64,000 bases of DNA, taken from assembly GCA_022601635.1 (NCBI GenBank), contig JAJACG010000022.1:5790-69789 (forward strand). The letters are read 5' to 3'. The DNA is from Chlamydiales bacterium (GTDB lineage Bacteria > Chlamydiota > Chlamydiia > Chlamydiales > JAAKFR01). Below, in pieces: positions 19,308-40,207 of the stretch (the first letter of the stretch is position 1; the number at the start of each line of letters is the position of its first letter). Both the position numbers and the translations under genes were made by a program. Below the pieces are notes generated by a model. The model did not search any database. It was not told the DNA's origin and saw only the letters and a program-made list of their open reading frames with translations.

Positions 19308-20359
19308 AATATCCCATCTACAATAAAAAGGCCTACCTCGCTCTCTACCTAATCGACACACTTTTGAAACTGCTGCCGCGTAAGAAGAGTGAGATCTCTT
19401 ATGACTCTCTACTTCTTTGTAATATCGCCCATATCGGGGATGTGATTTTGACAACTTCATTGCTGAAGCCTATCAAAGAGGCTTTTCCTAATATGAAACT
19501 AGGGATGTTGATCAATAGCTGCGCCCGCCCAATCGTCGAGGGGCAGGTCGATCATTTGCACATCTTTGATCACTGGAAGCTTGGAGGCAACAGCCGAGAT
19601 TGCAAAAAGGTGATTGAAGAGATCAAAGGGTATAGCATTGCTGTTGACTGCAACTTTCACTATCCCAATAGCAGTCCCCTTCTTTGGCAGGCGAAGATTC
19701 CAACACGCATTGGCTTTACAAGTGCTGGCTTTGGTCCCCTTCTCACACACAGCTACTCTTGGCAGACAGAGGATGTTCCTGCACCCCAAATCTATGCACG
19801 GCTACTCAAACCGCTCGGTATTGACGCAGTACCAACTAAGCCGCAGATAGTCACTAGTGCCATAGAAAAGAAAGAGTACATTGTTGTTCATCCTTGCAGT
19901 CGAAATGCTCGAAAAGAGTGGCCTGCTGCCAAGTGGAAAGAGCTACTTCAGCGCTTTCCCAAGAGTCAGCTGCTCTTTACAGGACGTGGAAAGCGCGAAA
20001 AGGCGTTTATAGAATCAATCATACCAGCAAATGGAACCAATCTCTGTGATCAGCTCTCTTGGAGTGAATTTGTGACAACGATTGCCGAAGGCGCACTGCT
20101 GCTTACTGTTGATACAAGTGCTGGACATATAGCTGCAGCGGTCGATACGCCTGTTGTTGCGATTCACCCCGCTATTCACCATGAAAAGTTGTGGAAGCCC
20201 TATGGTGAAAAGGTAACAGTTGTGCGCCAAAATCCAGATTGCTCACCCTGCTTTACAGGGTGTGAATCGATGGAGTGTATCAAAACGATTTCGGTCGATA
20301 GAGTCTACGATGCCGCGCAAGCAATGATACCGCGTCCCACCTCTCCACGCTCTAGCTGA
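19304..20359 (+). CDS. Glycosyltransferase family 9 (heptosyltransferase-like)
   Basis: 351 aa with a GTG start. Supporting segments are NIAHIGDVILTTSLLKPIKEAFP, VVHPCSRNARKEWPAAKWKELL, and the C-terminal LLLTVDTSAGHIAAAVDTPVVAI, which is the typical GT9 donor-site region. Confidence 0.7.
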   Translation: MKYPIYNKKAYLALYLIDTLLKLLPRKKSEISYDSLLLCNIAHIGDVILTTSLLKPIKEAFPNMKLGMLINSCARPIVEGQVDHLHIFDHWKLGGNSRDCKKVIEEIKGYSIAVDCNFHYPNSSPLLWQAKIPTRIGFTSAGFGPLLTHSYSWQTEDVPAPQIYARLLKPLGIDAVPTKPQIVTSAIEKKEYIVVHPCSRNARKEWPAAKWKELLQRFPKSQLLFTGRGKREKAFIESIIPANGTNLCDQLSWSEFVTTIAEGALLLTVDTSAGHIAAAVDTPVVAIHPAIHHEKLWKPYGEKVTVVRQNPDCSPCFTGCESMECIKTISVDRVYDAAQAMIPRPTSPRSS

Positions 20360-21330
20360 TCAACAAGAGTATTGATCTCACGAAGCGGAACCTCATGGGT
20401 GATCAATTCGGTGAGTTTCAACTCCCCCTTCAAAAAGAGGTCGGCGTAGTAGGCAACATCCTCATCAACTTGGCTCTTTCCACCCCATGTACCTCTAATC
20501 TGCTTGCCACAGATCAGATCAAAGGGATCGATAGAAATCGTCTGTCCTTTGGGAAGATTTCCAGCCAAAACACAGAGACCAGGCGATCGTAGAGAGCGGT
20601 AGGCCGCCTCCATCGCCTCTTTGCGCCCAGCCGACTCAAAAGCGTAGTCAACACCACCACAAATCTCATGAATCTGGCTAGCTGGATCTTTCCTGGCATC
20701 CACAAGATGTGTTGCTCCAAGCTCTTTGGCGCGCTGCAGCTTCTTCTCACAGATATCTACCGCAATGACTGGATTTGCTCCACGTGAAACAGCACAAAGA
20801 AGACCGCTGAGCCCAACTCCACCGCAACCAAAGAGAGCAAAGGAGGAACCCTCTTCTAACTGCATCTCATTTTTCACAACCCCAGCGCCTGTCGGCAGTG
20901 CGCAGCCAAGAAGAGCTGCCTCTTTAAGTGGCATCTCTTTTGGAATGGGAACAAGGCGATTTTCAGAGACAACGGCGCACTCCATAAAGGTGCTGATCGC
21001 ACCAGAATTGATTGCCCCATCTTCAGAACTGTACTGCGTTGAGGGAACGTCATGGCCAGCGCCTTTGAGCCAGGTGAGCACCACATGATCACCCTTTTTA
21101 ACCTTGCTCACTGAAGGCCCAACCTCAAGTACGATTCCGGAGCCCTCATGCCCAAGCGTATGAGGCAAAAACTTATCCTCACCCTTGCGTCCAAAAATTT
21201 CATTGAGCTGAGTATGGCAGAGCCCGCTGTAAGCGATCTGTACCAACACCTGGCCCTCTTTCAAGATAGCCGTCTGAAGCTGCATGAGCTCAAGTGGCTG
21301 CTTTGTCTGTTTGAGTACGGCACCTAACAT
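20305..21330 (-). CDS. Zinc-dependent alcohol dehydrogenase family (MDR) oxidoreductase
   Basis: Supporting motifs are GLCHTQLNE...LGHEGSGIVLEVG (catalytic zinc region) and the Rossmann FGCGGVGLSG. The probable start is MLGAVLKQ at 21330, overlapping the upstream methyltransferase stop by 7 nt. Confidence 0.8.
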   Translation of the reverse strand: MLGAVLKQTKQPLELMQLQTAILKEGQVLVQIAYSGLCHTQLNEIFGRKGEDKFLPHTLGHEGSGIVLEVGPSVSKVKKGDHVVLTWLKGAGHDVPSTQYSSEDGAINSGAISTFMECAVVSENRLVPIPKEMPLKEAALLGCALPTGAGVVKNEMQLEEGSSFALFGCGGVGLSGLLCAVSRGANPVIAVDICEKKLQRAKELGATHLVDARKDPASQIHEICGGVDYAFESAGRKEAMEAAYRSLRSPGLCVLAGNLPKGQTISIDPFDLICGKQIRGTWGGKSQVDEDVAYYADLFLKGELKLTELITHEVPLREINTLVDQLERGEVGRGIIACAAS

Positions 21331-22040
21331 TTGGGACCACACGCAACAGCTATATAGTAGTGGGCAAAAGGCATAAAGCCGGTATGGACCATCTCATCGT
21401 TGGCAGCAAATAAGAAGACATGAGAAAAGTGCTTATAGAGCTCCTCTTCTAGCCTCTCATGATCATAGATATTGATATGACCCAGCTTTGCTACATCAGA
21501 TGTGTACTGCTGACTTGGCTTCGAAGGCGTTCCAATCACAGCAATGCCGTTTTCCTTCAGTGATGAAGCTATTTTTCCAAGAAACTGCGTTGCATGCTCC
21601 GGTATGATATGTTCAATCACATCAAAACTGGTGATCGCATTATATTTCTCTTTAGGCTCATACTCAAAAAAGTCAGTATGTACAAATTCTGCTTGCTCGC
21701 TTGCGAAGTTCTTTTTTGCAACTTCTACCGCCTCTTCATCAAAATCAATCCCCTGCACATAGCCGCACTCTTTTGCCAAAAGAAAGGTGCCAAAACCCTC
21801 ATTACAGCCAACATCCATGATACGCTTGCCGCTACCAATCATTTTGGCTGCAAACTTGTAATAGCTCATGCTGTGCATCATCCTTCTGGGAGAGTAATGA
21901 TGCCAAAAAGAGACATACCGTCCTAAATGTATGGGATCTGGTTCTTCAATTTTGTTGTAAACACAATCCCAGCTCGACTTCACATCGTTTGCCATTGGCC
22001 TCCTCATATCTTCTTGCACAAACTGCTGTAGGTGACTCAC
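21324..22040 (-). CDS. Class I SAM-dependent methyltransferase (paralog of 22770..23438)
   Basis: Motif I is IMDVGCNEGFGT. The tail NDEMVHTGFMPFAHYYIAVAC is shared with the paralog (NDEVVHTGFAKMAQYLFVVAC). The true start is probably internal (MANDVKSS at 21995), and either start overlaps the upstream gene. Confidence 0.75.
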   Translation of the reverse strand: MSHLQQFVQEDMRRPMANDVKSSWDCVYNKIEEPDPIHLGRYVSFWHHYSPRRMMHSMSYYKFAAKMIGSGKRIMDVGCNEGFGTFLLAKECGYVQGIDFDEEAVEVAKKNFASEQAEFVHTDFFEYEPKEKYNAITSFDVIEHIIPEHATQFLGKIASSLKENGIAVIGTPSKPSQQYTSDVAKLGHINIYDHERLEEELYKHFSHVFLFAANDEMVHTGFMPFAHYYIAVACGPKC

Positions 22041-22767
22041 TCACAACAGTGTATTTAACTTGTCTCTCACCCATTTCAACTGGGGCATAAGTGGGCATCA
22101 AACGCTGATCACTGCTCCACCTTGTGATAGAATCTCCATTCATGATACAGCCATGAACAACAGGTAGGCAGAAAACCAACGCTTGCCCAAATTTTAACGG
22201 TACTGGCTTGACCCGATCAGCAACACTATCTTCCATCTTCTGCGGCGCATAGAGAAAGCCGAGCTGATGCTTCTTTGACCCTTTAGTCACCTCTTTACTT
22301 TGGATTTTGGTGGTGGGATAAGCCTCTTCAGACTCGAGATGCGAACCATCAATCATACTCATCGTATTTTTGGGCCCTAGCTCTACAAAAGGTACAAAAA
22401 AGGAGTGTTCATAGGGCGTTCCACCATAGTGACTATCCCGGTGATAGCCAATATTGTCCTGACTCTTCCCTGGTCTTGCAATTCTTAAAAAGGGGTTTGC
22501 CTGCTTGACAATATCTAGACCCATAATTTCTCGAAAGGCGGGCAACAGCGGCGTGATAAAATCATACTCCTGTTCTCTGAAAAATTGGGTCATCTCAATC
22601 TGAATTTTAGAATGCCTGCTATCATCCTCTTCGCGATACTCTTCAAGTGAACATTTTTTCCCAACCAACGAAGAGAGCCTCCCTTCAAGCTCCTCTTTCA
22701 CCCTTTCAAGTTCTGAAATATCTGGGAAATCTAAAACAACCCAGCCCTTATCGATATACTCTTGCAT
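21946..22767 (-). CDS. PhyH-like Fe(II)/2-oxoglutarate dioxygenase (putative)
   Basis: An H-x-D motif in IGYHRDSHYGG and a distal His in MSMIDGSHLESE fit the PhyH facial-triad layout. I re-called the start at ATG 22767 (MQEYIDKGW), just after the upstream stop. Confidence 0.5.
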   Translation of the reverse strand: MQEYIDKGWVVLDFPDISELERVKEELEGRLSSLVGKKCSLEEYREEDDSRHSKIQIEMTQFFREQEYDFITPLLPAFREIMGLDIVKQANPFLRIARPGKSQDNIGYHRDSHYGGTPYEHSFFVPFVELGPKNTMSMIDGSHLESEEAYPTTKIQSKEVTKGSKKHQLGFLYAPQKMEDSVADRVKPVPLKFGQALVFCLPVVHGCIMNGDSITRWSSDQRLMPTYAPVEMGERQVKYTVVSESPTAVCARRYEEANGKRCEVELGLCLQQN

Positions 22768-22769
22768 CA

Positions 22770-23438
22770 CTACCTCTTGTTGCACGCAACGACAAATAGA
22801 TATTGCGCCATTTTAGCAAAGCCTGTGTGGACAACCTCATCATTCATTCCAAAAGAGAAGACATTTTGGAAATACTTCTCAAAGAGTGTTCTCAATCTCT
22901 CTTGCGAGTACATATTGACATGTGCTTCACGACTAAGTTTTGAAGCGTAGGGAGTCGTTGTCTCATTGGGTGTCCCACAAACCACTATACCACCATCATT
23001 TACATGATCAGCAAGCGCTTTCACATAGGTCTCTTCATACTCTTTGTAGATATGCTCGATCACATCGAGACTGACAACCAAATCATGCTCACCAAATGTC
23101 TTGTCAAAGAAATCAGCTGACTCAAAGCCAAAACGCTCCTCATCGAAAATCTTTTTTGCTGACTCAATTTGCGGCTTATCATAGTCGACACCAAAATATT
23201 TGCGTCCTTCAGCTAAAATAGGTGCCCCAATTCCTTCTCCACAACCAAGCTCAATCACGCTCTTCGCATTCTTCGCCATTTTTGAGGCAAACTTGTAACG
23301 CGCGAGCACAAAGGGTAAGCGTTTTGGATCATTGCGAAAATTCCATGACCACACAGTTCCCCATTTTATGCGCTTGGCTGGAAAGTTTGCTTTAACCTCT
23401 TCCCACATCTGCGCTTCTGTAGCATTTGATAAGCTCAT
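22770..23438 (-). CDS. Class I SAM-dependent methyltransferase
   Basis: Motif I is VIELGCGEGIGAP, with SLDVIEHI downstream. It is a paralog of 21324..22040. Confidence 0.75.
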   Translation of the reverse strand: MSLSNATEAQMWEEVKANFPAKRIKWGTVWSWNFRNDPKRLPFVLARYKFASKMAKNAKSVIELGCGEGIGAPILAEGRKYFGVDYDKPQIESAKKIFDEERFGFESADFFDKTFGEHDLVVSLDVIEHIYKEYEETYVKALADHVNDGGIVVCGTPNETTTPYASKLSREAHVNMYSQERLRTLFEKYFQNVFSFGMNDEVVHTGFAKMAQYLFVVACNKR

Positions 23439-24240
23439 CTACTCCCTCTTTCCACTCTTTTATTTCACAAAACGATGCCAAATAGGCTGATTTGGGTCTA
23501 GGTATATTATCGATGTCTGACATACTAATCGCTTTCACACAGCTGCGCTCCATTCCTAAACCTTCAGCTATGTAACAGGCCATCTCATATCGATTTGCGG
23601 GCTCTTTAGGGCAAATCTGAAAAATCCCACGAGCATCCTGGGCCTGCAAATCAAAGAGACAGTTTGACAACTCCTCTATACTGGCAAGCTGCAACTCTTG
23701 ATCAACAGCAGCTTCTACCTCACCTCTATTTAGCAACTTTTGGACAATCTCGTGCATCACATTTTGGTGTGGTCCATAGATGCGACAGAGCCTGATAATT
23801 AGGCAGTCATCTGCCATCTCTCGCATCAAAATCTCTTCCCTTTTAGCATGAATCTCCCCATACATGTTTGTAGGAGAGGTTGGTGAGTGTGGGTAGTAAA
23901 CCTCTTGCTCGCCATCAAAAACTTGTGTCGTTGAAAGCACAACGGGTGTAATCCCACGAACAATAAACTCTCTACAAAGTTCCATAGTACCATCAATATC
24001 TACCTGCCAACAAAGATCTGGCTCCTGAATACAGCGCTGTGGCGTAGAATAGCCCACAGCAATGATAGCCCATCTGTAGCCTTTAGTCGAAAAATTAATA
24101 GTTGGCCTTCTTAGGTCAAGAAAAGGCTGCTCATTTCGACTGGTTCCAATTAGATCCGGATAGTGTTTCTTCAACTCATTGAAAAGATGACTACCAATAA
24201 AGCCTGTAGAACCAACCACAATCGATTTGGGGGGAGTCAT
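23392..24240 (-). CDS. NAD(P)-dependent sugar epimerase/reductase (SDR; RmlD-like size)
   Basis: The Rossmann motif VVGSTGFIGSHL follows the re-called start MTPPKSIVV (ATG 24240). That start forms an ATGA overlap with the GT2 stop. Confidence 0.65.
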   Translation of the reverse strand: MTPPKSIVVGSTGFIGSHLFNELKKHYPDLIGTSRNEQPFLDLRRPTINFSTKGYRWAIIAVGYSTPQRCIQEPDLCWQVDIDGTMELCREFIVRGITPVVLSTTQVFDGEQEVYYPHSPTSPTNMYGEIHAKREEILMREMADDCLIIRLCRIYGPHQNVMHEIVQKLLNRGEVEAAVDQELQLASIEELSNCLFDLQAQDARGIFQICPKEPANRYEMACYIAEGLGMERSCVKAISMSDIDNIPRPKSAYLASFCEIKEWKEGVDELIKCYRSADVGRG

Positions 24241-25121
24241 GAAAAGCGCACTCTCTTTGTTATTGAGCGCCAAATACGCCTCTTTGTCGAACTTTTGGAT
24301 GCTTTGAAAAAATCCCACCACTTGGGCTGCCAGATTAGCTTCCAAAAGAGATTGTCAAAGACAAAGGAGAGCTGCCCTGAATCTCGAAACTTCTGACGCA
24401 ACAAACTATCCTGAGCTACTTGATCAAGTAGTGCTAAATAGGTTCGATTTCGCCTCTTACGATCCTTCTTTACCTTACTCGTATAAGAGTCTTCACACTC
24501 TCTCATGGCAATACCTACTTGAGGTAGGTAGCCGATGCCCTCCAGAAGGGCAATTTTTTGAAACAAGAACCAATCAGAGATATTTTCTAACTTTGGATTG
24601 GGAAGACCATACTTCTTCAAAGTCTCAACCTCTGTGATACAAGCGACCCCGGGTACCCAAAAACCGCTTTTTCTAAAGGTAGAGACAATTTGTTCCTTAT
24701 GGAACGCTATTGGCTTTTCGGAAGGGTAGAGATTGGTCTCACGCGAGCCCTTTTCGGAAAAGTAGCTAATATCACTGCAAACTAACTTCAGCTTCTCTTC
24801 TTGCATAAGCTTCATGCAACCTGACAAATAGCCGGGTAGATAGAGATCATCGGAGCTAAAGATCTGAACAAACTCTCCCTGCACTTCTTTAAAAAGGTCG
24901 GTAACTGTAGCAAAGTAGCCCCTGTTTTTTTTGAAATAGAAGGGGCGAATTCTATCTCCAAAGCTCTCTATTACGGCGCGACTTTCATCTGTAGAAGCGT
25001 CATCTCCAACCAACACTTCAAAGTCATCAAAGTCTTGATTCAAGACAGAATCGATTGTTTCACCCAAAAAGGGGGCGTGATTGTAGTTGGGGATGATGAC
25101 AGAAAGTGCTCGCTTCTTCAC
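24237..25121 (-). CDS. Glycosyltransferase family 2
   Basis: The N-terminal LSVIIPNYNHAPFLGETIDSVLNQ...VGDDASTDES is the classic GT2 (GT-A, DxD-type) head. Confidence 0.85.
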   Translation of the reverse strand: MKKRALSVIIPNYNHAPFLGETIDSVLNQDFDDFEVLVGDDASTDESRAVIESFGDRIRPFYFKKNRGYFATVTDLFKEVQGEFVQIFSSDDLYLPGYLSGCMKLMQEEKLKLVCSDISYFSEKGSRETNLYPSEKPIAFHKEQIVSTFRKSGFWVPGVACITEVETLKKYGLPNPKLENISDWFLFQKIALLEGIGYLPQVGIAMRECEDSYTSKVKKDRKRRNRTYLALLDQVAQDSLLRQKFRDSGQLSFVFDNLFWKLIWQPKWWDFFKASKSSTKRRIWRSITKRVRFS

Positions 25122-25256
25122 AGCTGGTATTGTAGGCTAACTTGTTTCGAACAGCAAGGGCTTTGTCGTGAAACTTTCAGATGTTGTAATCGACTTTTTT
25201 GCAAAGCGTGGTGTGCACCAATATTTGCAATGCCTTTTTTGACTCAGTGCCCCTTG

Positions 25257-25426: not shown

Positions 25427-25620
25427 TGAAGAGTCAGCTGTTGTTAATGGCCGCAATTTTAGCTTGGTACATGATGCATGGGGATCAACAGAGTTGCGTG
25501 AAGATCTTCTGGCAAATAGCGACCTTTATAAGCTAAGGCGCAACCAAGCTCTTTCATCTTGCAGCAAAAGTGATGCAAAACTATAGTTCAACCTTCAACA
25601 AGTGATCAAAGGAGAGAAAC

Positions 25621-26595
25621 ATGCACGTTTTAGTCGCAGGTGGAGCAGGCTATGTAGGTTCCAAACTCATTCCCGCCCTTTTAAATAAAGGCCACAAGGT
25701 CACAGTACTCGATCTCTACATGTATGGGGACGATCTCTTTGAAAAACACCCTAACCTGCGTGAAGTAAAGGGTGATATACGCGATATCGAGCTTGTTCGC
25801 TCTTCATTAGAGGGTTGCGATTCAGTCATTCACCTTGCCTGTATCTCCAATGACCCAAGTTTTGAGCTTAACCCCGACCTTGGCAAGTCAATCAACCTCG
25901 ACTCATTTGACCCCTTTGTTCAAGCGGCAAAGGAGACTGGCATTAAACGTTTCATTTACGCCTCATCCTCATCTGTTTATGGTGTAAAAGATGCACCAAA
26001 TGTAACTGAAGACATGGAGCTTGAGCCGCTTACCGATTACTCAAAATTCAAGGCTGAGTGTGAGAGAATTCTCTTTTCACACATGAATGATGACTTTATC
26101 TGTACAGTACTGCGCCCCGCAACTGTTTGCGGTTATGCACCGCGCCAGAGACTCGATGTTGTTGTCAACATTTTAACCAACCTCGCCTACCACAAGGGTA
26201 AGATCAAGGTGATGGGTGGATCACAGATGCGCCCGAACATCCATGTGGATGACATGGTCGATGCCTACTTGCATGTGCTCAACTGCAGCAAAGAGCAAGT
26301 TCAAGGCAAAACCTACAATGTAGGTTATCACAATCATACTGTCTTAGAACTGGGTGAAATTGTGAAGAACGAGGTAGGCAACTGCGAACTAAACGTTGAA
26401 CCGACAAATGACAACCGCTCCTACCACGTCTCTTCTGAAAAGATTGCCAAGGAGCTTGGCTTTACACCAAAGCGTAACATTCAAGATGCCGTTAAAAGTT
26501 TGCTCGAAGCATTTGAAGCTGGGAAACTTCCAGACTCTTTGGAAGATAAAAAGTACTTCAACATCAAAACCATGAAGGCGATAGAACTGAAATGA
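25621..26595 (+). CDS. NAD-dependent NDP-sugar epimerase/dehydratase (extended SDR)
   Basis: 324 aa starting MHVLVAGGAGYVGSKL (GxxGxxG). SSSSVYG and a downstream YSKFK provide the Ser and YxxxK catalytic pattern. Confidence 0.75.
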   Translation: MHVLVAGGAGYVGSKLIPALLNKGHKVTVLDLYMYGDDLFEKHPNLREVKGDIRDIELVRSSLEGCDSVIHLACISNDPSFELNPDLGKSINLDSFDPFVQAAKETGIKRFIYASSSSVYGVKDAPNVTEDMELEPLTDYSKFKAECERILFSHMNDDFICTVLRPATVCGYAPRQRLDVVVNILTNLAYHKGKIKVMGGSQMRPNIHVDDMVDAYLHVLNCSKEQVQGKTYNVGYHNHTVLELGEIVKNEVGNCELNVEPTNDNRSYHVSSEKIAKELGFTPKRNIQDAVKSLLEAFEAGKLPDSLEDKKYFNIKTMKAIELK

Positions 26596-27590
26596 AGACA
26601 TTAGTAACTGGTGGAGCAGGCTTTATTGGAAGCCATCTAGCTGAGCTGCTTTTGCGTAGCGGCCATGAGGTTGTTGTTGTAGACAACTTAAATTCAGGGC
26701 GCTTGAAAAATTTAGATGCGATTGCTCACGACCCGCTATTCAAATTTTGTCCCGTCGATATAAGAGATAAAGAGGCTCTCAAAGAGTGCTTCTTCGGAGT
26801 TGACTGGGTCTTTCATCTAGCTGGACTTGCTGACATTGTGCCATCGATTGAGAATCCAAAAGACTACTTTGAGGTCAATGTGGATGGCACCTTCAATGTG
26901 CTTGAGTGTGCTAGAGAGGTAAAGGCGAAACGTTTTGTCTATGCCGCATCTTCCTCTTGCTACGGTATTCCCAAAAACTACCCAACACCTGAAACAGAGC
27001 CTATCTCTCCTCAATACCCATACGCTTTGACCAAATATTTGGGAGAGGAGCTGGTGATGCATTGGGCGCAGCTTTATAACCTGCCAGCTCTAAGCTTGCG
27101 TCTTTTCAATGTATTTGGACCAAGATCTAGAACTTCGGGCACATATGGTGCTGTCTTTGGCGTCTTTTTGGCTCAAAAGCTTCATGATGCCCCCTATACA
27201 GTAGTTGGTGATGGGACGCAGACGCGCGATTTTACATTCGTATCGGATGTAGCACGCGCCTTTTTGACAGCAGCCGAGAGCTCTGTTTGCGGTGAAATAT
27301 TTAATGTTGGAAGCTCTGACCACTACAGTGTGAATCGATTGGTGGAGCTGCTCCAGGGTGATGTTGTGCATATTCCCAAAAGACCTGGGGAACCAGACTG
27401 CACCTTTGCCGATGTCTCAAAGATTGAGAGTATGATTAATTGGAAGGCGCAAGTCTCTTTTGAAGAGGGAGTCCAAAAGTTGCTAGACTCTCTCGATGAT
27501 TTCAAGGATGCTCCTTTGTGGGATCCTGAAACCATTAAAAAAGCAACAGCCAAGTGGTTTGAATGTTTAGCGGAGCCAGCATGTTCGTAG
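26592..27590 (+). CDS. NAD-dependent NDP-sugar epimerase/dehydratase (extended SDR)
   Basis: 332 aa with MKTLVTGGAGFIGSHL, ASSSSCYG and YALTKYLGE (YxxxK). It overlaps the upstream SDR by 4 nt. Confidence 0.75.
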   Translation: MKTLVTGGAGFIGSHLAELLLRSGHEVVVVDNLNSGRLKNLDAIAHDPLFKFCPVDIRDKEALKECFFGVDWVFHLAGLADIVPSIENPKDYFEVNVDGTFNVLECAREVKAKRFVYAASSSCYGIPKNYPTPETEPISPQYPYALTKYLGEELVMHWAQLYNLPALSLRLFNVFGPRSRTSGTYGAVFGVFLAQKLHDAPYTVVGDGTQTRDFTFVSDVARAFLTAAESSVCGEIFNVGSSDHYSVNRLVELLQGDVVHIPKRPGEPDCTFADVSKIESMINWKAQVSFEEGVQKLLDSLDDFKDAPLWDPETIKKATAKWFECLAEPACS

Positions 27591-28162
27591 AAAGAATGGA
27601 TGAATTACTAGACTGTGTCAAAAAATGCAGTTACACGGACAGCAGTGGAGAGATCTCTCCAGAGGAGGCGCTTTTTGCAGCGCAAGATCATGTCAAATGC
27701 GGTAACATATTTGTCGTGGGCAATGGTGGAAGTGCGGGTATCGCTTCTCATTTTGCAACAGATCTAACTAAGACATTACAGCTTCCCGCTACAACATTGA
27801 CTGACTCGAACAGTGTGACCTGCTTTAGCAATGATCATGGCTATGAGAATGTCTTTGCCAGCCCTCTCAAAGTTAGAATGAAGGGTGAAGATCTTCTGGT
27901 TGCAATTTCCAGCTCTGGTCAATCTGAAAATATCTTGAATGCTTGCCGCGTTGCCAAAGAAAAGGGAGCGCGCATCATTACGTTGAGTGGATTTTTGGAA
28001 GACAATCCTCTTCGCTCTATGGGTAAGCTCAACTTCTTTGTTGATGCAGAAGACTACGGTCTTGTTGAGACTGCTCATTTTTTTCTATTACATACAATTA
28101 TTGATTCACTAAGCTCATGCAAAAAAAGATCAGAAGAGTTGATGAAATTGGCAGTGTCGTAG
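27581..28162 (+). CDS. gmhA: Sedoheptulose 7-phosphate isomerase (SIS domain, GmhA-like)
   Basis: The motifs VVGNGGSAGIASHFATDL and VAISSSGQSENIL are the GmhA/SIS signature regions, and the size (about 190 aa) fits. The start is ambiguous among 27563, 27581 and 27596. Confidence 0.75.
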   Translation: MFVERMDELLDCVKKCSYTDSSGEISPEEALFAAQDHVKCGNIFVVGNGGSAGIASHFATDLTKTLQLPATTLTDSNSVTCFSNDHGYENVFASPLKVRMKGEDLLVAISSSGQSENILNACRVAKEKGARIITLSGFLEDNPLRSMGKLNFFVDAEDYGLVETAHFFLLHTIIDSLSSCKKRSEELMKLAVS

Positions 28163-29631
28163 CTGCTGAGAAAAAATGTGGTAACCGTGTCGTGCACTGC
28201 CATGGTGTATTTGATCTTCTCCACCCTGGGCATATTCGTCACTTTATCGATGCAAGAAAACAGGGTGATACACTTGTTGTTTCTCTGACTCCTGATCGCT
28301 TTGTCAATAAGGGCCCAGGCAGACCAGCTTTTAGTGAGCAGCTACGTTCTGAGCAGCTTGCCGCTCTTGCTTGCGTAGATTTCGTCGTACTAAATGACGC
28401 TCCCGATGCCATTTCAATCATAAAAAAAGTGCAGCCCGATCTCTATGTAAAGGGAATTGAATACCAAAATCATGGTGATGATGTAACTGGAAAGATTTCG
28501 AAAGAGGTAGAGGCTGTCGAATCTATCGGCGGATCGATCTATTACACTGAAGACATTGTTTTTAGCTCTTCCAACCTGATCAACCGCTTCTTCGATCAAG
28601 ATGCAAATCGCATTGCGCCTTTCATGGACCCATTTAAAAAACACTTTTCACTTGACGATGTGATCAATGCAGTCGATGAGCTCAATGGTTTGAAGGTTCT
28701 GGTTGTGGGAGATGCCATTTTAGATGAGTATCAATATGTCTCTCCTCTTGGACAGTCTGGTAAAGGGCAGCAAATCACGGCCTCCTTGCAAGACAAAGAG
28801 CTCTTTTTGGGAGGCTCATTGGTCATTGCCAACCACTTGGCTGGTTTTGCTGGCTCTGTCGACCTGCTCACTGCCATTGGAAAAGATTGTCCTCATCGAA
28901 AAAAGATGGAAAAAGAGCTCTTGAGCAATGTCAAGCCGCATTTCATCGAAACTAAGCTGCCCACACTTTTGAAAAAGCGCTATGTACAAAAAGATGGTAA
29001 ATCGATTTCCAAACTTTTTGAGACCTACAGTAGCACAAGTTCACTTCTAGAAGTTGAGCAGACTCATGAGGTTATGGACTTCCTGAAAGATGGTGAATAT
29101 GATCTAGTCATTGCATGTGATTTTGGTAATGGATTCACCAACCCCGAGATTATTTCAGCGATCTGTACGATGCCTAATTTTTTGGCTGTTAATACGCAGA
29201 CAAATAGTGGTAATCGCGGTTACAATGTGATCACCAACTACCAAAGGGCAGACTACATCTCTTTGAATGAACCGGAGCTTCGCTTGGCAGCGCATGATAA
29301 AGATAGTCGCCTTGAAGAGGTAGTCAAAGACATTGGTTCACTATTACAATGTGAGTCAATGGCAGTGACCAGAGGGAGTGATGGTCTACTGTTTAAAACG
29401 GCTAAGGAATCGATTGAGATTCCAGCTTTGACTATGCGTGCAATTGACAGAGTGGGTGCTGGTGACAGCTTTCTCTCTTTATCAGCTATGTCATTGGCAA
29501 AGGGGCAAAGCGCTTGGTTAGCAGGTTTTATTGGCTCTGTTGCTGCTGCAATTGATGTACAGATTGTGGGCAACAGAGAAGCAATCAACAAAGTGGAATT
29601 ATGCAAGTTCATCACCAGACTCATGAAGTAA
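28117..29631 (+). CDS. Bifunctional nucleotidyltransferase plus PfkB-family sugar kinase (HldE-like, with inverted domain order)
   Basis: The N-terminal VVHCHGVFDLLHPGHIRHF carries the HxGH motif of the cytidylyl/adenylyltransferase family. The C-terminal region of about 320 aa ends in the PfkB signature AIDRVGAGDSFLS. It lies directly downstream of gmhA. Confidence 0.65.
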   Translation: MQKKIRRVDEIGSVVAAEKKCGNRVVHCHGVFDLLHPGHIRHFIDARKQGDTLVVSLTPDRFVNKGPGRPAFSEQLRSEQLAALACVDFVVLNDAPDAISIIKKVQPDLYVKGIEYQNHGDDVTGKISKEVEAVESIGGSIYYTEDIVFSSSNLINRFFDQDANRIAPFMDPFKKHFSLDDVINAVDELNGLKVLVVGDAILDEYQYVSPLGQSGKGQQITASLQDKELFLGGSLVIANHLAGFAGSVDLLTAIGKDCPHRKKMEKELLSNVKPHFIETKLPTLLKKRYVQKDGKSISKLFETYSSTSSLLEVEQTHEVMDFLKDGEYDLVIACDFGNGFTNPEIISAICTMPNFLAVNTQTNSGNRGYNVITNYQRADYISLNEPELRLAAHDKDSRLEEVVKDIGSLLQCESMAVTRGSDGLLFKTAKESIEIPALTMRAIDRVGAGDSFLSLSAMSLAKGQSAWLAGFIGSVAAAIDVQIVGNREAINKVELCKFITRLMK

Positions 29632-29642
29632 GAGTAGCTAAA

Positions 29643-30512
29643 ATGATGCGCATTCGGCGCATTGAGGAATGCATTGCTGATCGCTATAGCGAGCAGAAGA
29701 TGCGCTGCCCTGTCCACCTAAGCATTGGCCAAGAGGCGATTGCTGTTGGTGTCTGCGAGCATCTAACAGATGATGACTTTGCAGTGAGTGGGCATAGAGC
29801 GCATGCTCACTACTTGGCCAAGGGTGGCTGCCTCAAACAGATGATAGCCGAAATCTATGGCAAGGTGGACGGCTGCTGTAAAGGCAGAGGTGGCTCAATG
29901 CATCTTGTTGACCTAGATTGCGGCTTCTTGGGCTCAACTCCTATTGTGGGTGGCAGTATTCCTGTTGGCGTGGGTGCTGCATTTGGATCTCAACTCAAAG
30001 GTGAGAAGCGCATCACAACCATTTTTCTTGGTGAGGGTTCAACTGAAGAGGGTGTCTTTGCAGAGTGCCTCAACTTTGCCATGCTAAAGAAGCTCCCCAT
30101 TCTCTTTGTCTGTGAAAACAACCTCTACTCTGTCTACTCTGGCTTGGAGGTGAGACAGCCAGCCTCCAGACATCGCCCCTCCTTGGCAAAAGCACACGGT
30201 ATGCTTGCTTTTGAGGGTGATGGCAATAATGTGAATGAGGTTTCCAAGTTGTCAGAAGAGGCAACGCACTACATCCGCGAGGGCAATGGCCCAGTCTTTC
30301 TGGAACTTTCGACCTACCGTTTCCGTGAGCATTGTGGTCCCAATCTCGATCCCTACCAGCCAAAAGAGGAATCCTCGCACTGGCTAGAGAAGGAGCCACT
30401 GCAAGGGATTGAGATGAGCGACGAATTTGAAAAAGAGATTGAGGAGGCATTTGCTTTTGCAGATAAAAGCCCCTTCCCTACCCCAGAGCAAGAGGAGCAG
30501 ATCTATGCGTGA
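29643..30512 (+). CDS. ThDP-dependent dehydrogenase E1 component, alpha subunit-like
   Basis: The ThDP-binding motif is FLGEGSTEEGVFAECLNFAMLKKLPILFVCENN (GxG...NN). IRRIEECIADRY is typical of E1 alpha N-termini. I re-called the start at ATG 29643. Confidence 0.8.
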   Translation: MMRIRRIEECIADRYSEQKMRCPVHLSIGQEAIAVGVCEHLTDDDFAVSGHRAHAHYLAKGGCLKQMIAEIYGKVDGCCKGRGGSMHLVDLDCGFLGSTPIVGGSIPVGVGAAFGSQLKGEKRITTIFLGEGSTEEGVFAECLNFAMLKKLPILFVCENNLYSVYSGLEVRQPASRHRPSLAKAHGMLAFEGDGNNVNEVSKLSEEATHYIREGNGPVFLELSTYRFREHCGPNLDPYQPKEESSHWLEKEPLQGIEMSDEFEKEIEEAFAFADKSPFPTPEQEEQIYA

Positions 30513-31566
30513 TATCACCTTTGCTCAAGCAATCTTAGAGGCTCAAGATCAACTGCTCGCTGCAGATGAATCGGTCTATCTGATGGGTCTTGGCGTGCCT
30601 GACCCAAAGGGCATCTTTGGTACAACTGTAGGGCTTGTCGAGAAATATGGGCCAGATCGCGTGCAAGATATGCCGATCTCAGAAAATGCGATCACAGGGA
30701 TTGGAGTGGGCTCAGCCATTGTGGGCATGCGTCCTGTAATGACTCATCAACGTGTCGATTTCTTTCTCCTTGCAATGGATCAGCTGATCAATAACGCCTC
30801 AAAATGGCACTATATGTTTGGCAACAAGATGCAGGTGCCGATTGTCTTCCGCCTTGTTATGGGTCGTGGTTGGGGCCAAGGCCCTCAACATTGCCAATCA
30901 CTCCATTCAATTTTTGCGCATATTCCAGGCCTCAAAGTTGTGATGCCCTCAACACCTTATGATGCGAAAGGCCTTCTTGTTTCCGCTGTTGAGGATAATG
31001 AGCCGGTCGTCTTCATGGAGCATCGCTGGCTGCACAATATTCATGGCGATGTCCCAGACAAAATGTACCGCGTGCCGATTGGCAAGGCGAAGGTAGTGCA
31101 AGAGGGAAGCGATCTCACCATTGTCGCATCCTCACACATGACGCTCGAGGCATTTCGCGCTCTTAAGATGATTGATGGCTCTGTAGAGTTAATTGATCTT
31201 CGCTCTGTCAAGCCGCTGGACAAAGAGACTATTTTGAATTCGGTTCGCAAGACTGGTAGACTGCTTGTTGCTGATCCTGATTGGAAGACATGCGGATTTG
31301 GGGCAGAAGTTATTGCTATGGTGACAGAAGAGGCATTTTCAAATTTGAAGATGGCACCTAGAAGAGTGGCCTATCCTGATAGACATAGTCCAACGAGTTG
31401 GGCGCTTTCTAACCATTACTACCCGACAGACAAAGATGTGGCGATTGCAGCGCTTGAGATGTTGGGCAAGCAGGCAGATTCAAAGCGGCTGCTTCAATCA
31501 CTACTTGAAACTAGAATGGGCACACCGATGGATGTGCCTGATCAATCATTTACAGGACCATTTTGA
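30505..31566 (+). CDS. ThDP-dependent dehydrogenase E1 component, beta subunit-like
   Basis: I re-called the start as MRDITFAQAILEA (ATG 30505), which overlaps the alpha stop by 8 nt. The transketolase-like pyrimidine-binding region is VQDMPISENAITGIGVGSA. The C-terminal domain contains LTIVASSHM...IDLRSVKPLD. Confidence 0.8.
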   Translation: MRDITFAQAILEAQDQLLAADESVYLMGLGVPDPKGIFGTTVGLVEKYGPDRVQDMPISENAITGIGVGSAIVGMRPVMTHQRVDFFLLAMDQLINNASKWHYMFGNKMQVPIVFRLVMGRGWGQGPQHCQSLHSIFAHIPGLKVVMPSTPYDAKGLLVSAVEDNEPVVFMEHRWLHNIHGDVPDKMYRVPIGKAKVVQEGSDLTIVASSHMTLEAFRALKMIDGSVELIDLRSVKPLDKETILNSVRKTGRLLVADPDWKTCGFGAEVIAMVTEEAFSNLKMAPRRVAYPDRHSPTSWALSNHYYPTDKDVAIAALEMLGKQADSKRLLQSLLETRMGTPMDVPDQSFTGPF

Positions 31567-32555
31567 TGAAAAAAGTACTCGTTATTGGTAGTAATTCCTT
31601 CTCTGGCAGCGACTTTGTCGATCTTCTTTTGGAAGAGGGTAAGTATGATGTTGTGGGTGTGAGTCGCTCTCCTGAGAAAGCGGGTCTCTTTTTGCCCTAC
31701 AAGAAGAGATTGCATGATAATTTCCGCTTTGTGCAGATCGATCTGAACCACGATATGGATAAGCTTGACAGCTTGATGGAGGAGTTTAGGCCTAACTATG
31801 TGGTCAACTTTGCGGCGCAAAGTGAGGTGGCTCCCTCTTGGCGCTACCCGCACCACTGGTTTGAGACAAATGCGGTTGGAATCACAAAGCTTGCCAACAT
31901 GCTCAAAGAGAAAAAGTTTTTGGAGCGCTATGTCCACATCTCCTCACCTGAGGTTTATGGCACTTGCGAGGGTTTTATCAAAGAGGAGACGCCTGTCAAC
32001 CCAACAACGCCTTATGCGGCATCAAAGGCGGCTGGAGATCTTTCGCTCTTTACCTTTGTGAAGAACTTTGACTTTCCGATGGTGATGATCCGTGCAACCA
32101 ATGTCTATGGGCCCTACCAGCAGCTATTCAAGATCATTCCGCGCTCTATTATCTACATGAAGCAGGGCAAGAGAATTCCTCTGCATGGTGGTGGTGTGGC
32201 AGTAAAGTCCTATATTCACATTCGCGATGTCTCTCGTGGAGAGTTGATGGCGATGGAGCGGGGTACAACTGGTGAGATCTACCACTTATCACCAACAGAG
32301 GGTGTTGCTGTTCGTACTGTTGTGGAGACGATTGCTAAGGAGCTGGGTCTCTCTTTTGATGAAGCAGTAGAAATTGCGGAAGAGAGATTGGGGCAGGATA
32401 AGGCGTATACGATTGACTCGACCAAGGCGCGCAAAGAGTTTGGTTGGGAGCCTCAGATCACACTTGATGAGGGAATTGCTCAGACGATTGACTGGATTAA
32501 CGAGCATTTTGAAACAATTACAGAGCAGCCACTTGAATATATACATAAGGAATAA
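31566..32555 (+). CDS. NDP-sugar 4,6-dehydratase-like extended SDR
   Basis: Supporting motifs are MKKVLVIGSNSFSGSDF, NFAAQSEVAPSW, SSPEVYG and YAASKAAGD (YxxxK). The start overlaps the E1 beta stop as TGATG. Confidence 0.65.
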   Translation: MKKVLVIGSNSFSGSDFVDLLLEEGKYDVVGVSRSPEKAGLFLPYKKRLHDNFRFVQIDLNHDMDKLDSLMEEFRPNYVVNFAAQSEVAPSWRYPHHWFETNAVGITKLANMLKEKKFLERYVHISSPEVYGTCEGFIKEETPVNPTTPYAASKAAGDLSLFTFVKNFDFPMVMIRATNVYGPYQQLFKIIPRSIIYMKQGKRIPLHGGGVAVKSYIHIRDVSRGELMAMERGTTGEIYHLSPTEGVAVRTVVETIAKELGLSFDEAVEIAEERLGQDKAYTIDSTKARKEFGWEPQITLDEGIAQTIDWINEHFETITEQPLEYIHKE

Positions 32556-33211
32556 TGATGGAAATTGACCTACTTGAGAACTATCCTAAAGCGAAGAGAA
32601 ATGTCAAAGAGCGTGGTGCGACAAAGACAGAAGAGGATCGTGCAATTGCGCGCCAGTTTGGTAAAGAGTTTTTCGATGGCGAGCGCAAGACGGGATATGG
32701 TGGCTTTTCTTATAACTCCCGCTTTTGGCAGCCAGTTGTACCTACATTTCAGAAGCATTACGGTTTGACTTCAGAGTCATCTATTTTGGATGTGGGCTGT
32801 GCGAAGGGCTTTATGCTGCATGACTTTTGCGAGAAGATCCCTGGAATCAAGGTGCGCGGTGTTGATGTATCCTCCTATGCGATTGAAAATGCGATGAACG
32901 AGGTTAAAAGTGATGTCTCTGTTGCCGATGCGCGTGAGCTTCCCTTTGAGGATAACTCCTTTGATGTGGTGATTTCGATCAATACGATCCATAACTTGGA
33001 GCAAGAAGATCTGATTCAAGCGCTGCGCGAGATTGAACGTATATCGAAGAAGGGCAGTTTTATTACTGTGGATGCCTATCGCAATGAGGACGAGAAAGAG
33101 CTTATGTACGCTTGGAACTTGACAGCGAAGACGATTTTGTCTGTAGTTGAATGGAAAGAGCTTTTTGCTAGAGCTGGTTACACGGGTGACTACTACTGGT
33201 TTATTCCTTAG
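32555..33211 (+). CDS. Class I SAM-dependent methyltransferase
   Basis: Motif I is ILDVGCAKGFML, with FDVVISINTIHNL downstream. The start overlaps the upstream stop by 1 nt (TAATG). Confidence 0.75.
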   Translation: MMEIDLLENYPKAKRNVKERGATKTEEDRAIARQFGKEFFDGERKTGYGGFSYNSRFWQPVVPTFQKHYGLTSESSILDVGCAKGFMLHDFCEKIPGIKVRGVDVSSYAIENAMNEVKSDVSVADARELPFEDNSFDVVISINTIHNLEQEDLIQALREIERISKKGSFITVDAYRNEDEKELMYAWNLTAKTILSVVEWKELFARAGYTGDYYWFIP

Positions 33212-33220
33212 GAGTTCTTA

Positions 33221-34594
33221 TTGTTTAAGTTGATTAAATGCTTCATAAAGCGATTTCAATGCCCCTGTTTTCGTTTATTTAATCTCTTTTATGAGCCCTA
33301 TCTATTCCGAAAACTAACAAAGCAGATAGATGAACTTCCTGAAGGTACACAGCTCTTTTTCATGGCACGCTCCGATCGCGGGACTATGCTGACTCTGCTC
33401 AACTATGTTCAGAAGTGGGAAGAAAATCGTGGTCCGACTGCTTTGGTTGTCTTATCCAGCCTATCCGATTTTCTCAATGGCTTGGTGGACTATATCATTC
33501 CAAACACAGTTGTGATGGTACCCTCAAGAAAGTTACTAAGGATCTTTGGAAATCGGAATGTGCACTTTCTTTGCTATGCAAATGTCTATGCAAAACTGCT
33601 CTTTGAATTCCCAAATGCAAAATACCTCTTCCATCTCCGAAGAAAAAACTATCCATCTTTCCCCCCAAGCAACTATTCTAAGTACTCAGATCCAAACATG
33701 GGTATAACTAGCTTGCCCCATCAGTTTAGAAATAAATATATATCCTATAGTCAGTTCACTGACTGTCACCTAGAAAGCAATAAAGACTATGCAACCGTCT
33801 GGTTTCAAGGAGATTGGAGAAAGTCCTGCCCCATTGCACCAAAACAGACAGATGACCTTTGCAAAGCTCTAGGGATTAAGAAACCATATGTAGTGATTAA
33901 TCTCCCCTATGCTGGAAATTACCCCTATCCAACATTAAGGCGCATTTCACAGCCAAAACGATACGATCCTGTTATTGATCATTTAATCCGCCAAGGTTTC
34001 ACAATTGTCCAGCATGGGAGAAGAGAACAGGCAAAGTTTGCTTCAAGACCTGGACTTATTGACTACTATGAGTCTGATTTGGCCTCTCCTAAAAATGATC
34101 TACTCCTATTTTCATCCTCCACTTTTGCTATTATGACTAGCTCCGGGCCTGAATATTTTGCTCTGTTTGCCAATCGTCCAGTATTAACTCTGAACAAGCT
34201 TGAAGGAATAACAAATCTGCCAAGTCACAAATCACGTTTTTTTCCTAAAGCTGTTTTTGATCGACAAAAAGAAGCATTCTTGTCATGGGAAGAATTTCTG
34301 GTATCGCCTGCATATTTCGACCTGGATCAGTGGAATAACCAGGAAAGATTTGAGCATCATGAACTTAGCTCCGAACAACTATTGGAAGCAACCAAAGAAT
34401 TTCTTACTCTTATCAAAGAAGATGAGTGGGAGTGTCTAACTTCCAGGCAAAGGAGCTTCCGAGAAAAGCTAAATCCATGTAATCTCGAGATCAATTTCTC
34501 AAGAGCACAACCTTGTGATACCTACCTTAAGTATTTTTCTTCAAAAACAATGAAACTTACTGATCAGCCTCGATATGTGGGTCACTCGCAGTAA
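33221..34594 (+). CDS. Hypothetical protein; a distant member of the putative glycosyltransferase paralog family
   Basis: 457 aa with a TTG start. Its architecture matches copies A, B and C: KPYVVINLPYAG...RYDPVIDHLIRQGFTIVQHGRRE...LIDYYESDLASPKNDLLLFSSSTFAIMTSSGPEYFALFANRPVLTLN. Sequence identity is low, so the assignment is tentative. Confidence 0.4.
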   Translation: MFKLIKCFIKRFQCPCFRLFNLFYEPYLFRKLTKQIDELPEGTQLFFMARSDRGTMLTLLNYVQKWEENRGPTALVVLSSLSDFLNGLVDYIIPNTVVMVPSRKLLRIFGNRNVHFLCYANVYAKLLFEFPNAKYLFHLRRKNYPSFPPSNYSKYSDPNMGITSLPHQFRNKYISYSQFTDCHLESNKDYATVWFQGDWRKSCPIAPKQTDDLCKALGIKKPYVVINLPYAGNYPYPTLRRISQPKRYDPVIDHLIRQGFTIVQHGRREQAKFASRPGLIDYYESDLASPKNDLLLFSSSTFAIMTSSGPEYFALFANRPVLTLNKLEGITNLPSHKSRFFPKAVFDRQKEAFLSWEEFLVSPAYFDLDQWNNQERFEHHELSSEQLLEATKEFLTLIKEDEWECLTSRQRSFREKLNPCNLEINFSRAQPCDTYLKYFSSKTMKLTDQPRYVGHSQ

Positions 34595-34622
34595 ATCAGC
34601 CAGCCTTATTCAACAACGCCCT
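34593..34622. repeat. Short relic motif shared with 5916..5962
   Basis: AAATCAGCCAGCCTTATTCAACAACGCCCT begins inside the stop codon of ORF 33221..34594. It matches the ABC-pseudogene segment upstream of paralog A, apart from a 17-nt indel. Confidence 0.7.
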
Positions 34623-34677
34623 CCAAACACAGTAATTGACTAAAAAGTGCACGAAATAATATGTGTTGAACGCATCA

Positions 34678-37738: not shown

Positions 37739-37749
37739 TATTTCTCTCC

Positions 37750-39179: not shown

Positions 39180-39181
39180 TG

Positions 39182-40153: not shown

Positions 40154-40207
40154 GACCAAGACGATATCAAGGTGGACAATTTGCGTCATTTCATTTAGCC
40201 TGGTTGC

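Follow-up and report, generated by a model that had tools for sequence, protein, structure and literature searches.

Why would two genes that resemble the alpha and beta subunits of a pyruvate dehydrogenase (PDH) E1 component lie in the middle of a sugar operon? This question is raised by a 64,000-nt stretch of contig JAJACG010000022.1 from a Chlamydiales bacterium (GCA_022601635.1), hereafter called the window, on which all coordinates below are based and in which the genes around the pair are typically chlamydial. In this study, we found that the two genes rather probably specify an alpha2beta2-type thiamine diphosphate (ThDP)-dependent E1-like enzyme that stands outside any 2-oxoacid dehydrogenase complex. 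Comparative analysis furthermore favours their membership in the alphaKADH2 group of sugar C-branching enzymes, which includes AviB1/B2, Pau11/12, TxnB3/B4, KstD7/D8, and KbDH-alpha/beta.

The alpha-like gene (29643..30512, + strand) encodes 289 aa with a Pfam E1_dh domain (1.3e-54), and the beta-like gene (30505..31566, + strand, ATG start) encodes 353 aa with Transket_pyr (2.5e-31) and Transketolase_C (1.8e-29) domains. The alpha ATG at 29643 lies 11 nt past the stop of the upstream HldE-like gene, and an alternative ATG at 29601, giving 303 aa, lies 31 nt inside that gene; in identical contigs, gene callers are split between these two starts. The alpha stop and the beta ATG overlap by 8 nt (ATGCGTGA), with an AGGAG ribosome-binding site 5' of the beta ATG, and the beta TGA in turn shares bases with the ATG (TGATG) of a short-chain dehydrogenase/reductase (SDR) gene at 31566. 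The ThDP motif of alpha consists of GEGSTEEG (residues 130-137, nt 30030-30053) and ENN (residues 158-160, nt 30114-30122), and beta carries PISE at residues 57-60 (nt 30673-30684). Alignment to PDB structures indicates that the active-site His230 of alpha (in YRFREH) is kept, as are the cofactor-activating Glu60 and the active-site His129 of beta. The pair thus has the heteromeric E1 architecture, that is, an E1_dh alpha and a Transket_pyr/Transketolase_C beta with the ThDP/Mg motif and the activating Glu. An earlier note on this DNA had described an overlapping E1 pair with these motifs and a transketolase-like C-terminal domain, and the open reading frames (ORFs), the Pfam domains, and the junction as read from the DNA bear out both the pair and the place of each motif.

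Relation to the E1 components of dehydrogenase complexes

One explanation would be that the pair functions as a normal E1 of pyruvate or acetoin dehydrogenase, with its E2 and E3 encoded elsewhere and its place among sugar genes due to chance. Public annotation, either PDH E1 beta or acetoin:DCPIP (dichlorophenolindophenol) oxidoreductase (Ao:DCPIP oxidoreductase), agrees with this explanation, and the pair keeps the catalytic His residues that serve in reductive acylation. AcoA/AcoB (Ao:DCPIP oxidoreductase) and PDH E1 have the same fold and the same ThDP and catalytic residues as the window pair, at ~38-43% identity; the closest solved alpha structure is human PDH E1 alpha (131 bits), and the closest solved beta structures are archaeal and Geobacillus E1 beta. 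However, alpha scores 257 bits against the NCBIfam PDH equivalog TIGR03182 (cut-off 394) and beta 299 bits against the PDH subfamily model NF006667 (cut-off 321), both below the cut-offs. Alpha is also shorter than PDH E1 alpha at the N- and C-terminus.

Furthermore, in the loci examined, AcoA/AcoB and PDH E1 always lie beside a lipoyl-E2 and often beside an E3, whereas the window pair does not. A Pfam scan of nearly all non-overlapping window ORFs of at least 150 aa revealed none of the E2/E3 domains 2-oxoacid_dh, Biotin_lipoyl, E3_binding, and Pyr_redox_dim, and six-frame tblastn of the window with Pfam-verified E2, E3, and lipoyl-domain queries gave no match, in keeping with the earlier claim that the window holds neither component. 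The pair therefore has neither of the two marks of a dehydrogenase E1, an adjacent lipoyl E2/E3 and a score above the PDH cut-offs. In favour of an ordinary E1, this search covered only the 64-kb window. An E2 and E3 for the housekeeping PDH are almost certainly present elsewhere in this genome.

To place the pair among its relatives, GTDB species genomes were scanned with an alignment of alpha representatives, which yielded 80 loci from many phyla, the best of 600 pattern matches. In a neighbour-joining tree of concatenated alpha and beta sequences (647 columns, 80 pairs), the window pair falls in a 44-pair clade that contains no E2-linked pair and has 100/100 bootstrap support. All 29 pairs with an adjacent lipoyl-E2 lie outside it, AcoA/AcoB and PDH E1 forming a separate clade, and their alpha subunits are all at most 43% identical to that of the window. 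The tight grouping with AcoAB or PDH E1 that the earlier note had named as the outcome speaking against its proposal was thus not seen. Within the clade, the chlamydial pairs group together, and their neighbours in the tree are cyanobacterial, Akkermansia-like, and acidobacterial pairs.

The beta subunit offers a second line of evidence. It is ~30 residues longer than PDH-type E1 beta at the C-terminus, and sugar-linked betas in general have an extension of 25-30 residues of which the last are exactly [FYW]xGP[FY]-COOH. In the window, this tail comprises residues 340-353 (31522..31563, + strand; ...TPMDVPDQSFTGPF-COOH) and ends in DVPDQSFTGPF. By this criterion, which was derived in the present analysis and is not a published one, the tail occurs in 34 of 51 betas without E2 and in none of 29 E2-linked betas (Fisher p = 4e-10), AcoB and PDH E1 beta being without it. 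Every tail-bearing sequence lies inside the 44-pair clade, and an inner 38-member clade holding all tails has 86/100 bootstrap support. The tail is also present in the betas of two Streptomyces loci (L017 and L026), of a Kibdelosporangium cluster, and of Coxiella burnetii, and it is retained at the C-terminus of those natural fusions of alpha and beta that come closest to the window alpha.

Eight residues are invariant in the clade and missing from E2-linked pairs, AcoA/AcoB and PDH E1 included: alpha P23, R171, and G232, and beta H81, R83, W123, Q125, and R174. As we read the alignment with Geobacillus and human E1, several of them flank the catalytic-His loop and, in the pocket for the ThDP pyrimidine, the conserved Gln/Phe. 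Basic residues make up four of the eight (beta H81, R83, and R174; alpha R171), which would be fitting for a nucleotide-diphosphate substrate. Plausibly, the tail and these residues replace the lipoyl/E2 interface by a binding site for a nucleoside diphosphate (NDP)-sugar. An AlphaFold2 monomer model of beta is confident for the core and for helix 323-339, and has low confidence for loop 122-131 and the last 14 residues (340-353). Whatever their structural role, the tail and the invariant residues provide a marker, readable from sequence only, that separates carboligase-type from complex-type E1 pairs.

The same clade links the window pair to characterised sugar C-branching enzymes. The window alpha is 46% identical (270 bits) to TxnB3 of the trioxacarcin pathway. 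Its identity to the alpha encoded in a natural-product cluster of Kibdelosporangium banguiense, the beta of which has a tail of the same type (...DFVGPY), is 49%. The two Streptomyces pairs of the clade, L017 and L026, include an alpha (L017) that is 78% identical to TxnB3; of the validated members, the comparison covered TxnB3, to which the tree is linked through these Streptomyces pairs. Identity to TxnB3 and to the Kibdelosporangium protein, the common clade, the tail, and the invariant residues thus lend comparative support to the earlier proposal of a C2-branching module of the AviB1/AviB2 type.

An ordinary dehydrogenase E1, by comparison, would have to be reconciled with scores under the PDH cut-offs, with a 100/100 split from every E2-linked pair, with a tail never seen in such pairs, with translational coupling to sugar genes on both sides, and with a sugar context kept in at least four chlamydial lineages (with another sugar context in a fifth) and across phyla. 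We consider this explanation very improbable.

The surrounding operon and a proposed route

The pair lies within a + strand operon (25621-35874) of ten genes with overlaps or gaps of at most 68 nt. The presence of sugar-nucleotide enzymes on both sides of the pair, which had been noticed before, is confirmed by Pfam and NCBIfam alike. Upstream of the pair, the operon encodes an extended SDR as its first gene (25621..26595), which is a candidate NDP-sugar C4-oxidising enzyme, a second extended SDR of the GalE/WbpP/UDP-glucuronic acid decarboxylase type (26592..27590), a SIS-domain GmhA-like ketose-phosphate isomerase (27563..28162; Pfam SIS_2; NCBIfam gmhA 86 bits, cut-off 209), and an HldE-like bifunctional protein of reversed order, with an N-terminal nucleotidyltransferase and a C-terminal PfkB sugar kinase (28117..29631), the two SDRs and the HldE-like protein being assigned by Pfam and NCBIfam. 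The HldE-like protein scores 146 bits against the HldE equivalog cut-off of 521 and is presumed to activate the sugar as an NDP-sugar. Downstream of the pair follow a deoxythymidine diphosphate (dTDP)-glucose-4,6-dehydratase-like SDR (31566..32555; NCBIfam dTDP_gluc_dehyt 221 bits, cut-off 365), a class I S-adenosylmethionine-dependent methyltransferase (32555..33211; Pfam), and, at the operon end, two glycosyltransferases of the TIGR04372 family (33221-34594 and 34663-35874; NCBIfam). The best PDB match of the 25621 SDR is 6vo6/6vo8 (140 bits), which we take to be C. jejuni Cj1427, a GDP-heptose C4-dehydrogenase; if this is true, the 25621 SDR would provide a 4-keto-heptose acceptor.

A block of tailoring genes on the opposite strand (20305..24345) encodes a Zn-dependent alcohol dehydrogenase (Zn-ADH, 20305), two methyltransferases (21324 and 22770), and an RmlD-like reductase (23392), all assigned by Pfam, together with a 279-aa protein without Pfam match (21946-22785, - strand). 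The last sits between the two methyltransferases, and is 41-46% identical to proteins of the cassettes in three chlamydial comparison loci (L004, L006, and L008) and 30% identical to one in the alphaproteobacterial L040.

From homology and gene context, we infer a putative pathway: what is donated and accepted, where the branch is placed, and in which order the steps follow. The enzyme would, with somewhat better than even likelihood, decarboxylate pyruvate and then transfer the C2 unit onto an NDP-keto-sugar, and this acceptor is probably heptose-derived. The SIS isomerase and the reversed HldE-like protein would convert a ketose phosphate, most likely sedoheptulose-7-P, to an NDP-heptose, which a flanking SDR (25621 or 31566) would oxidise or dehydrate to an NDP-4-keto sugar. 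The E1 pair would then form hydroxyethylidene-ThDP from pyruvate and add it to the sugar ketone, giving a tertiary alcohol with a C-acetyl branch. Subsequently, the Zn-ADH or the RmlD-like reductase would reduce the branch, three or four methyltransferases would methylate the sugar, and the TIGR04372 glycosyltransferases would put it on a lipopolysaccharide (LPS)-like glycan. Reductases and methyltransferases as found in the chlamydial cassette are the tailoring enzymes expected after acetyl branching.

The position of the E1 genes between the activation genes and the 31566 SDR might also suggest a role before activation, similar to that of DXS or transketolase, in which the pair would combine an aldose phosphate with pyruvate or a ketose donor into an unusual ketose phosphate, for isomerisation and activation by the SIS and HldE-like proteins. 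The beta subunit is distantly similar to DXS and transketolase, and both the SIS and the HldE-like protein score far under their equivalog cut-offs, so that their substrate may not be sedoheptulose-7-P. However, actinomycete members of the clade belong to dTDP-hexose pathways without SIS or kinase, many tail-type loci consist of the E1 pair with SDRs and DegT and have no SIS, and sedoheptulose-7-P is ubiquitous, which makes a dedicated synthase unneeded. A role before activation is therefore improbable, and C2 transfer onto an activated keto-sugar is the reading retained below.

The wider region, ~19.3-47.6 kb, is an LPS/O-antigen-like cluster that includes a GT9 heptosyltransferase, GT2 glycosyltransferases, Wzy_C, a UDP-glucose dehydrogenase, and a CmcI methyltransferase, as well as a GHMP kinase with a nucleoside triphosphate (NTP)-transferase, a PhyH dioxygenase, and a TylC3-like C-methyltransferase. 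The last four belong to a second heptose-type module at 36803-42312, on both strands, composed of an SDR (36803), the PhyH dioxygenase (37750), the NTP-transferase (38514), the GHMP kinase (39182), the C-methyltransferase (40208), and another SDR (41383). The C-methyltransferase at 40208, which the earlier note had pointed out, is indeed present and carries Methyltransf_13/14 domains. Homologues of the kinase and of the 36803 SDR (47-57% identical) lie beside tail-type E1 pairs in L016, L027, L028, L030, L034, L042, and L043, and a homologue of the transferase does so in some of these loci. The G+C content is 0.38-0.43 at 34001-44000 and 0.45-0.50 in the flanks. Horizontal transfer may have brought in the distal portion of the glycan cluster. 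A scan for promoters and terminators at 24800-36300 gave counts not above those of shuffled sequence. Outside the cluster, a 184-aa ORF (62955-63509, - strand) with the eukaryote-type Pfam domain zf-C2H2 (1.9e-07) is a possible host-directed effector.

Conservation of the gene set and its bearing on the chemistry

Chlamydial assemblies contain more than 100 beta homologues of 65-84% identity, and an NCBI protein listed under 'Chlamydiales bacterium' matches the window beta at 100% identity. The order SDR-SDR-SIS-HldE(reversed)-E1 alpha-E1 beta-SDR-methyltransferase is repeated in L004 (a chlamydial genome of 2.4 Mb), L006 (a Simkaniaceae chromosome), and L009 (an uncultured metagenome-assembled genome, MAG). 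In L004 and L006, an RmlD-like reductase, methyltransferases, a conserved unknown protein, and a Zn-ADH lie directly 3' of the E1 operon; L009 keeps only part of this tailoring set, and in the window the tailoring genes are on the opposite strand. In two further chlamydial loci (L007 and L008), the pair lies among glycosyltransferases and SDRs, beside a YerE/acetolactate synthase (ALS)-like ThDP enzyme and an adh_short reductase, with an additional DegT gene in L007. No YerE/ALS-like ThDP gene was found in the window, whereas one is present in the sister genomes L007, L008, and L009. The 500-bp gap between the divergent operons of the window holds a 48-aa adh_short relic (25404-25547, + strand) that is 42% identical to the reductase of these three loci. 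Because this relic remains, loss of the YerE-like/reductase pair in the window lineage is suggested.

For relatives beyond Chlamydiae, flanks were annotated by tblastn with the window proteins and with Pfam-verified E2, E3, DegT, ALS-like, radical-SAM, and HAD references. Alpha identity reaches 44% or more in a close set of 32 loci, which comprises 27 of the 80 scanned loci and five chlamydial contigs (two of which, L004 and L005, came from one look-up). The 27 scanned loci are from Chlamydiia, Cyanobacteria, Verrucomicrobia, Acidobacteria, Legionellaceae, SAR11, Elusimicrobia, Rickettsiales, Rhodopseudomonas, and Streptomyces. None of the 32 has E2 or E3 near the pair in flanks of up to 10 kb on each side, and 24 have at least two NDP-sugar genes. 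The loci of the tail clade are likewise free of E2, E3, and lipoyl domains. Two partner sets recur, both of which are heptose-type activation pathways. The window type consists of SIS and reversed HldE, with or without HAD, homologues of the 25621 and 26592 SDRs, a 4,6-dehydratase-like SDR, and a methyltransferase; the other consists of GHMP kinase, NTP-transferase, HAD, SIS, a homologue of the 36803 SDR, and DegT.

Among the 33 tail-type loci, reversed HldE accompanies the E1 pair in 16, a SIS isomerase in 13, and a homologue of the 31566 SDR in 17, where it directly adjoins the pair in nine. A homologue of the 25621 SDR occurs in 15 tail-type loci (41-72% identity in 13 and 26-34% in two) and lies immediately upstream of the pair in L010, L020, and L051. 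The 26592 SDR likewise has a homologue in 15 (54-77% in 12, from several phyla, and 26-29% in three), and the 32555 methyltransferase reaches 70-75% identity to cassette genes in other phyla. DegT genes stand 3' of E1 beta in other loci, which matches the transaminated branch of kibdelomycin (PMC12247030).

As a side observation, L053, a Rhodopseudomonas palustris MAG, combines a SIS protein, an SDR, a dehydratase-like SDR, a tail-type E1 pair, a Zn-ADH, a reversed HldE, an adh_short reductase, and a YerE/ALS-like enzyme with a methyltransferase 70% identical to that at 32555. R. palustris CGA009 reportedly carries a 3-O-methylated, 4-C-branched, caryophyllose-like sugar in its O-antigen. L053 might be linked to the published C6-branched sugar of this O-antigen.

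The ALS/YerE-like and adh_short genes beside the pair in L007, L008, L009, L012, L014, L038, and L053 raise the question of whether the enzyme acts in the same pathway by a different ThDP chemistry. Three variants of this idea can be envisaged: another donor, such as hydroxypyruvate, 2-oxobutyrate, or acetoin/diacetyl supplied by an ALS-like partner; an attack directed at C3 or at an aldehyde, leading to chain extension instead of a C4 branch; and trimming of a branch by acyloin cleavage. Among E2-linked E1s, those of the acetoin type stand nearest to the pair; they both cleave and form acyloins, and Ao:DCPIP oxidoreductase makes tertiary alpha-hydroxyketones in vitro (PMC12247030). Known alphaKADH2 members branch at C3 or C4 (PMC12247030), and the heptose-type context is unlike that of all characterised members. 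Nevertheless, the characterised alphaKADH2 member is reportedly restricted to pyruvate as donor, the group being apparently specialised for C2 branches (PMC12247030); the window retains only the adh_short relic and no ALS-like gene; and the clade-specific residues are common to the Streptomyces pairs. A different chemistry is thus rather unlikely.

C2 transfer from pyruvate onto a heptose-derived NDP-keto-sugar, as proposed above, has several points that weigh against it. Support for the window pair is comparative, biochemical and genetic support being confined to the antibiotic-producer members, and the 80 loci compared are, as said, a selection of best matches. Known members act on dTDP-deoxyhexoses, whereas the window partners suggest a heptose scaffold, which makes the acceptor a guess. 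To our knowledge, no C2-branched sugar has been found in chlamydial or Coxiella LPS. The alpha ThDP motif has Glu in place of the Mg-binding Asp of the canonical GDG; this GEG variant recurs in 19 of 151 aligned alphas (the window and 150 family representatives), including the nearest ones. The beta tail is unplaced or disordered in the AlphaFold2 monomer model, from which its docking site is not inferable. The 31566 SDR has SPEVYG where RmlB has TDEVYG (alignment with PDB 6bi4), and because its catalytic Asp is thereby replaced by Pro, it may oxidise C4 without canonical 4,6-dehydration. No GmhB-type HAD phosphatase, which would trim a kinase-made bisphosphate, was found in the window. Finally, a YerE/ALS-like ThDP enzyme is present in some relatives as well. 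Beside these points, a GmhB/HAD phosphatase does occur in the related cassettes L010, L012, L014, L018, and L022.

Comparison with known systems

A pathogen counterpart is found in Coxiella burnetii, whose E1 pair CBU_0692/CBU_0693 (L088; OZ377722.1, 1261373-1282434) is annotated as pyruvate dehydrogenase. Its beta (P0441) matches the window beta in length (353 aa), shares 49% identity with it (E 1e-121), and has DVPGDWFGGPF as its last residues, and its alpha has the signature of the clade. There is no E2 or E3 within 10 kb of this pair, and its neighbours are two DegT genes, a GT2, a TylC3-like C-methyltransferase, and GMD-like SDRs. A 167-aa Transketolase_C fragment ~6 kb from the pair is an apparent remnant of an E1 beta. 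The known branched sugars of Coxiella, virenose and dihydrohydroxystreptose, have C1 and not C2 branches. A ThDP route to virenose, from a pentose and a C2 unit or by acyloin rearrangement, was considered and rejected because of a mismatch in the carbon and methyl count.

A SIS protein and SDRs are encoded in the Coxiella region too, as is the reversed HldE CBU0678 (PMC5843353; PMC13252051), which is needed for phase I LPS (PMC5843353) and has the same architecture as the 28117 protein. With these genes and a tail-type E1 pair in one region, an equivalent of the window gene set thus exists in a virulence locus, albeit in another gene order and with the E1 pair apart from the SIS/HldE genes. 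The Coxiella E1 genes have been read as part of fatty-acid or acetyl-CoA metabolism (PMC5423948). Very probably, the annotation as PDH or acetoin dehydrogenase, found in databases and in at least one Coxiella paper, is wrong for the whole multi-phylum clade. The homology provides a testable hypothesis for CBU_0692/0693, two genes of the O-antigen region whose loss accompanies avirulent phase II.

A more far-reaching interpretation is that tail-bearing E1 pairs represent a widespread and overlooked route by which bacteria other than actinomycetes, Gram-negatives among them, make heptose-derived surface-glycan sugars with a C2 branch or C2 extension (C9 nonoses), and in which the FxGPF tail turns a complex E1 into a free-standing NDP-sugar carboligase. 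We put this forward tentatively, as doubtful at present. If it is true, carriers would be environmental chlamydiae, SAR11, cyanobacteria, Akkermansia-like Verrucomicrobia, Legionellales, and Coxiella burnetii with its virulence-determining O-antigen. The proposed pathway predicts unusual branched and methylated higher-carbon sugars in the LPS of environmental chlamydiae. Enzymes of this kind form chiral tertiary alcohols, and for biocatalysis the clade greatly widens the pool of candidates. What is new here is the host and the pathway context for a known kind of enzyme, and the most valuable by-products are the sequence signature and the re-reading of the Coxiella genes.

This known kind of enzyme has been characterised in actinomycetes. 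TxnB3/TxnB4 have been proposed to place a chain of two carbons, derived from pyruvate, on C4 of a dTDP-sugar, and a delta-txnB4 mutant loses the branched (C2-branched) octose (PMC5659172). AviB1/B2 of the avilamycin and Pau11/12 of the paulomycin pathway have been assigned the same C2-attachment role (PMC4753412). A 2025 review named the group alphaKADH2 and counted ~120 such biosynthetic gene clusters (PMC12247030); as summarised there from Krug 2024, the kibdelomycin enzyme KbDH-alpha/beta joins pyruvate to ketones in vitro. The group also includes KstD7/D8 of the kosinostatin pathway. In alphaKADH2 pathways, the branch ketone is later reduced, methylated, oxidised, or transaminated (PMC12247030).

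Like these enzymes, the window pair is a two-subunit E1 without E2/E3 amid NDP-sugar genes, falls in the same clade, and has the beta tail and the clade-invariant residues. Reductase and methyltransferase tailoring is likewise common to alphaKADH2 pathways and the window cassette, with an aminotransferase (DegT) in other loci. Unlike them, it belongs to an environmental chlamydia and, by its context, to a cell-surface (LPS-like) glycan rather than to an actinomycete antibiotic; its sugar would be of the heptose type, made via SIS and reversed HldE, and not a dTDP-2,6-dideoxyhexose; and its alpha has GEG in place of GDG.

The review places alphaKADH2 in the synthesis of secondary metabolites and ascribes LPS sugar branching to YerE-like enzymes (PMC12247030). 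YerE, ErwE, and MMAR_2332 act in Gram-negative or mycobacterial surface glycans (yersiniose, erwiniose, and caryophyllose; PMC9306805), and join a ThDP-bound acyl anion to an NDP-4-keto sugar to give a tertiary alcohol, followed by a reductase, which is the outcome proposed here for the window pair. The earlier note's reference to YerE was apt, although YerE itself is of an unrelated family and is not encoded in the window: YerE-type enzymes are single-chain, ALS-like proteins (TPP_enzyme_N/M/C) that accept donors up to C8, whereas the window pair has the E1 fold. E1-type sugar C-branching, so far a matter of actinomycete antibiotics, is placed by the present comparison in the surface-glycan clusters of chlamydiae and other bacteria.

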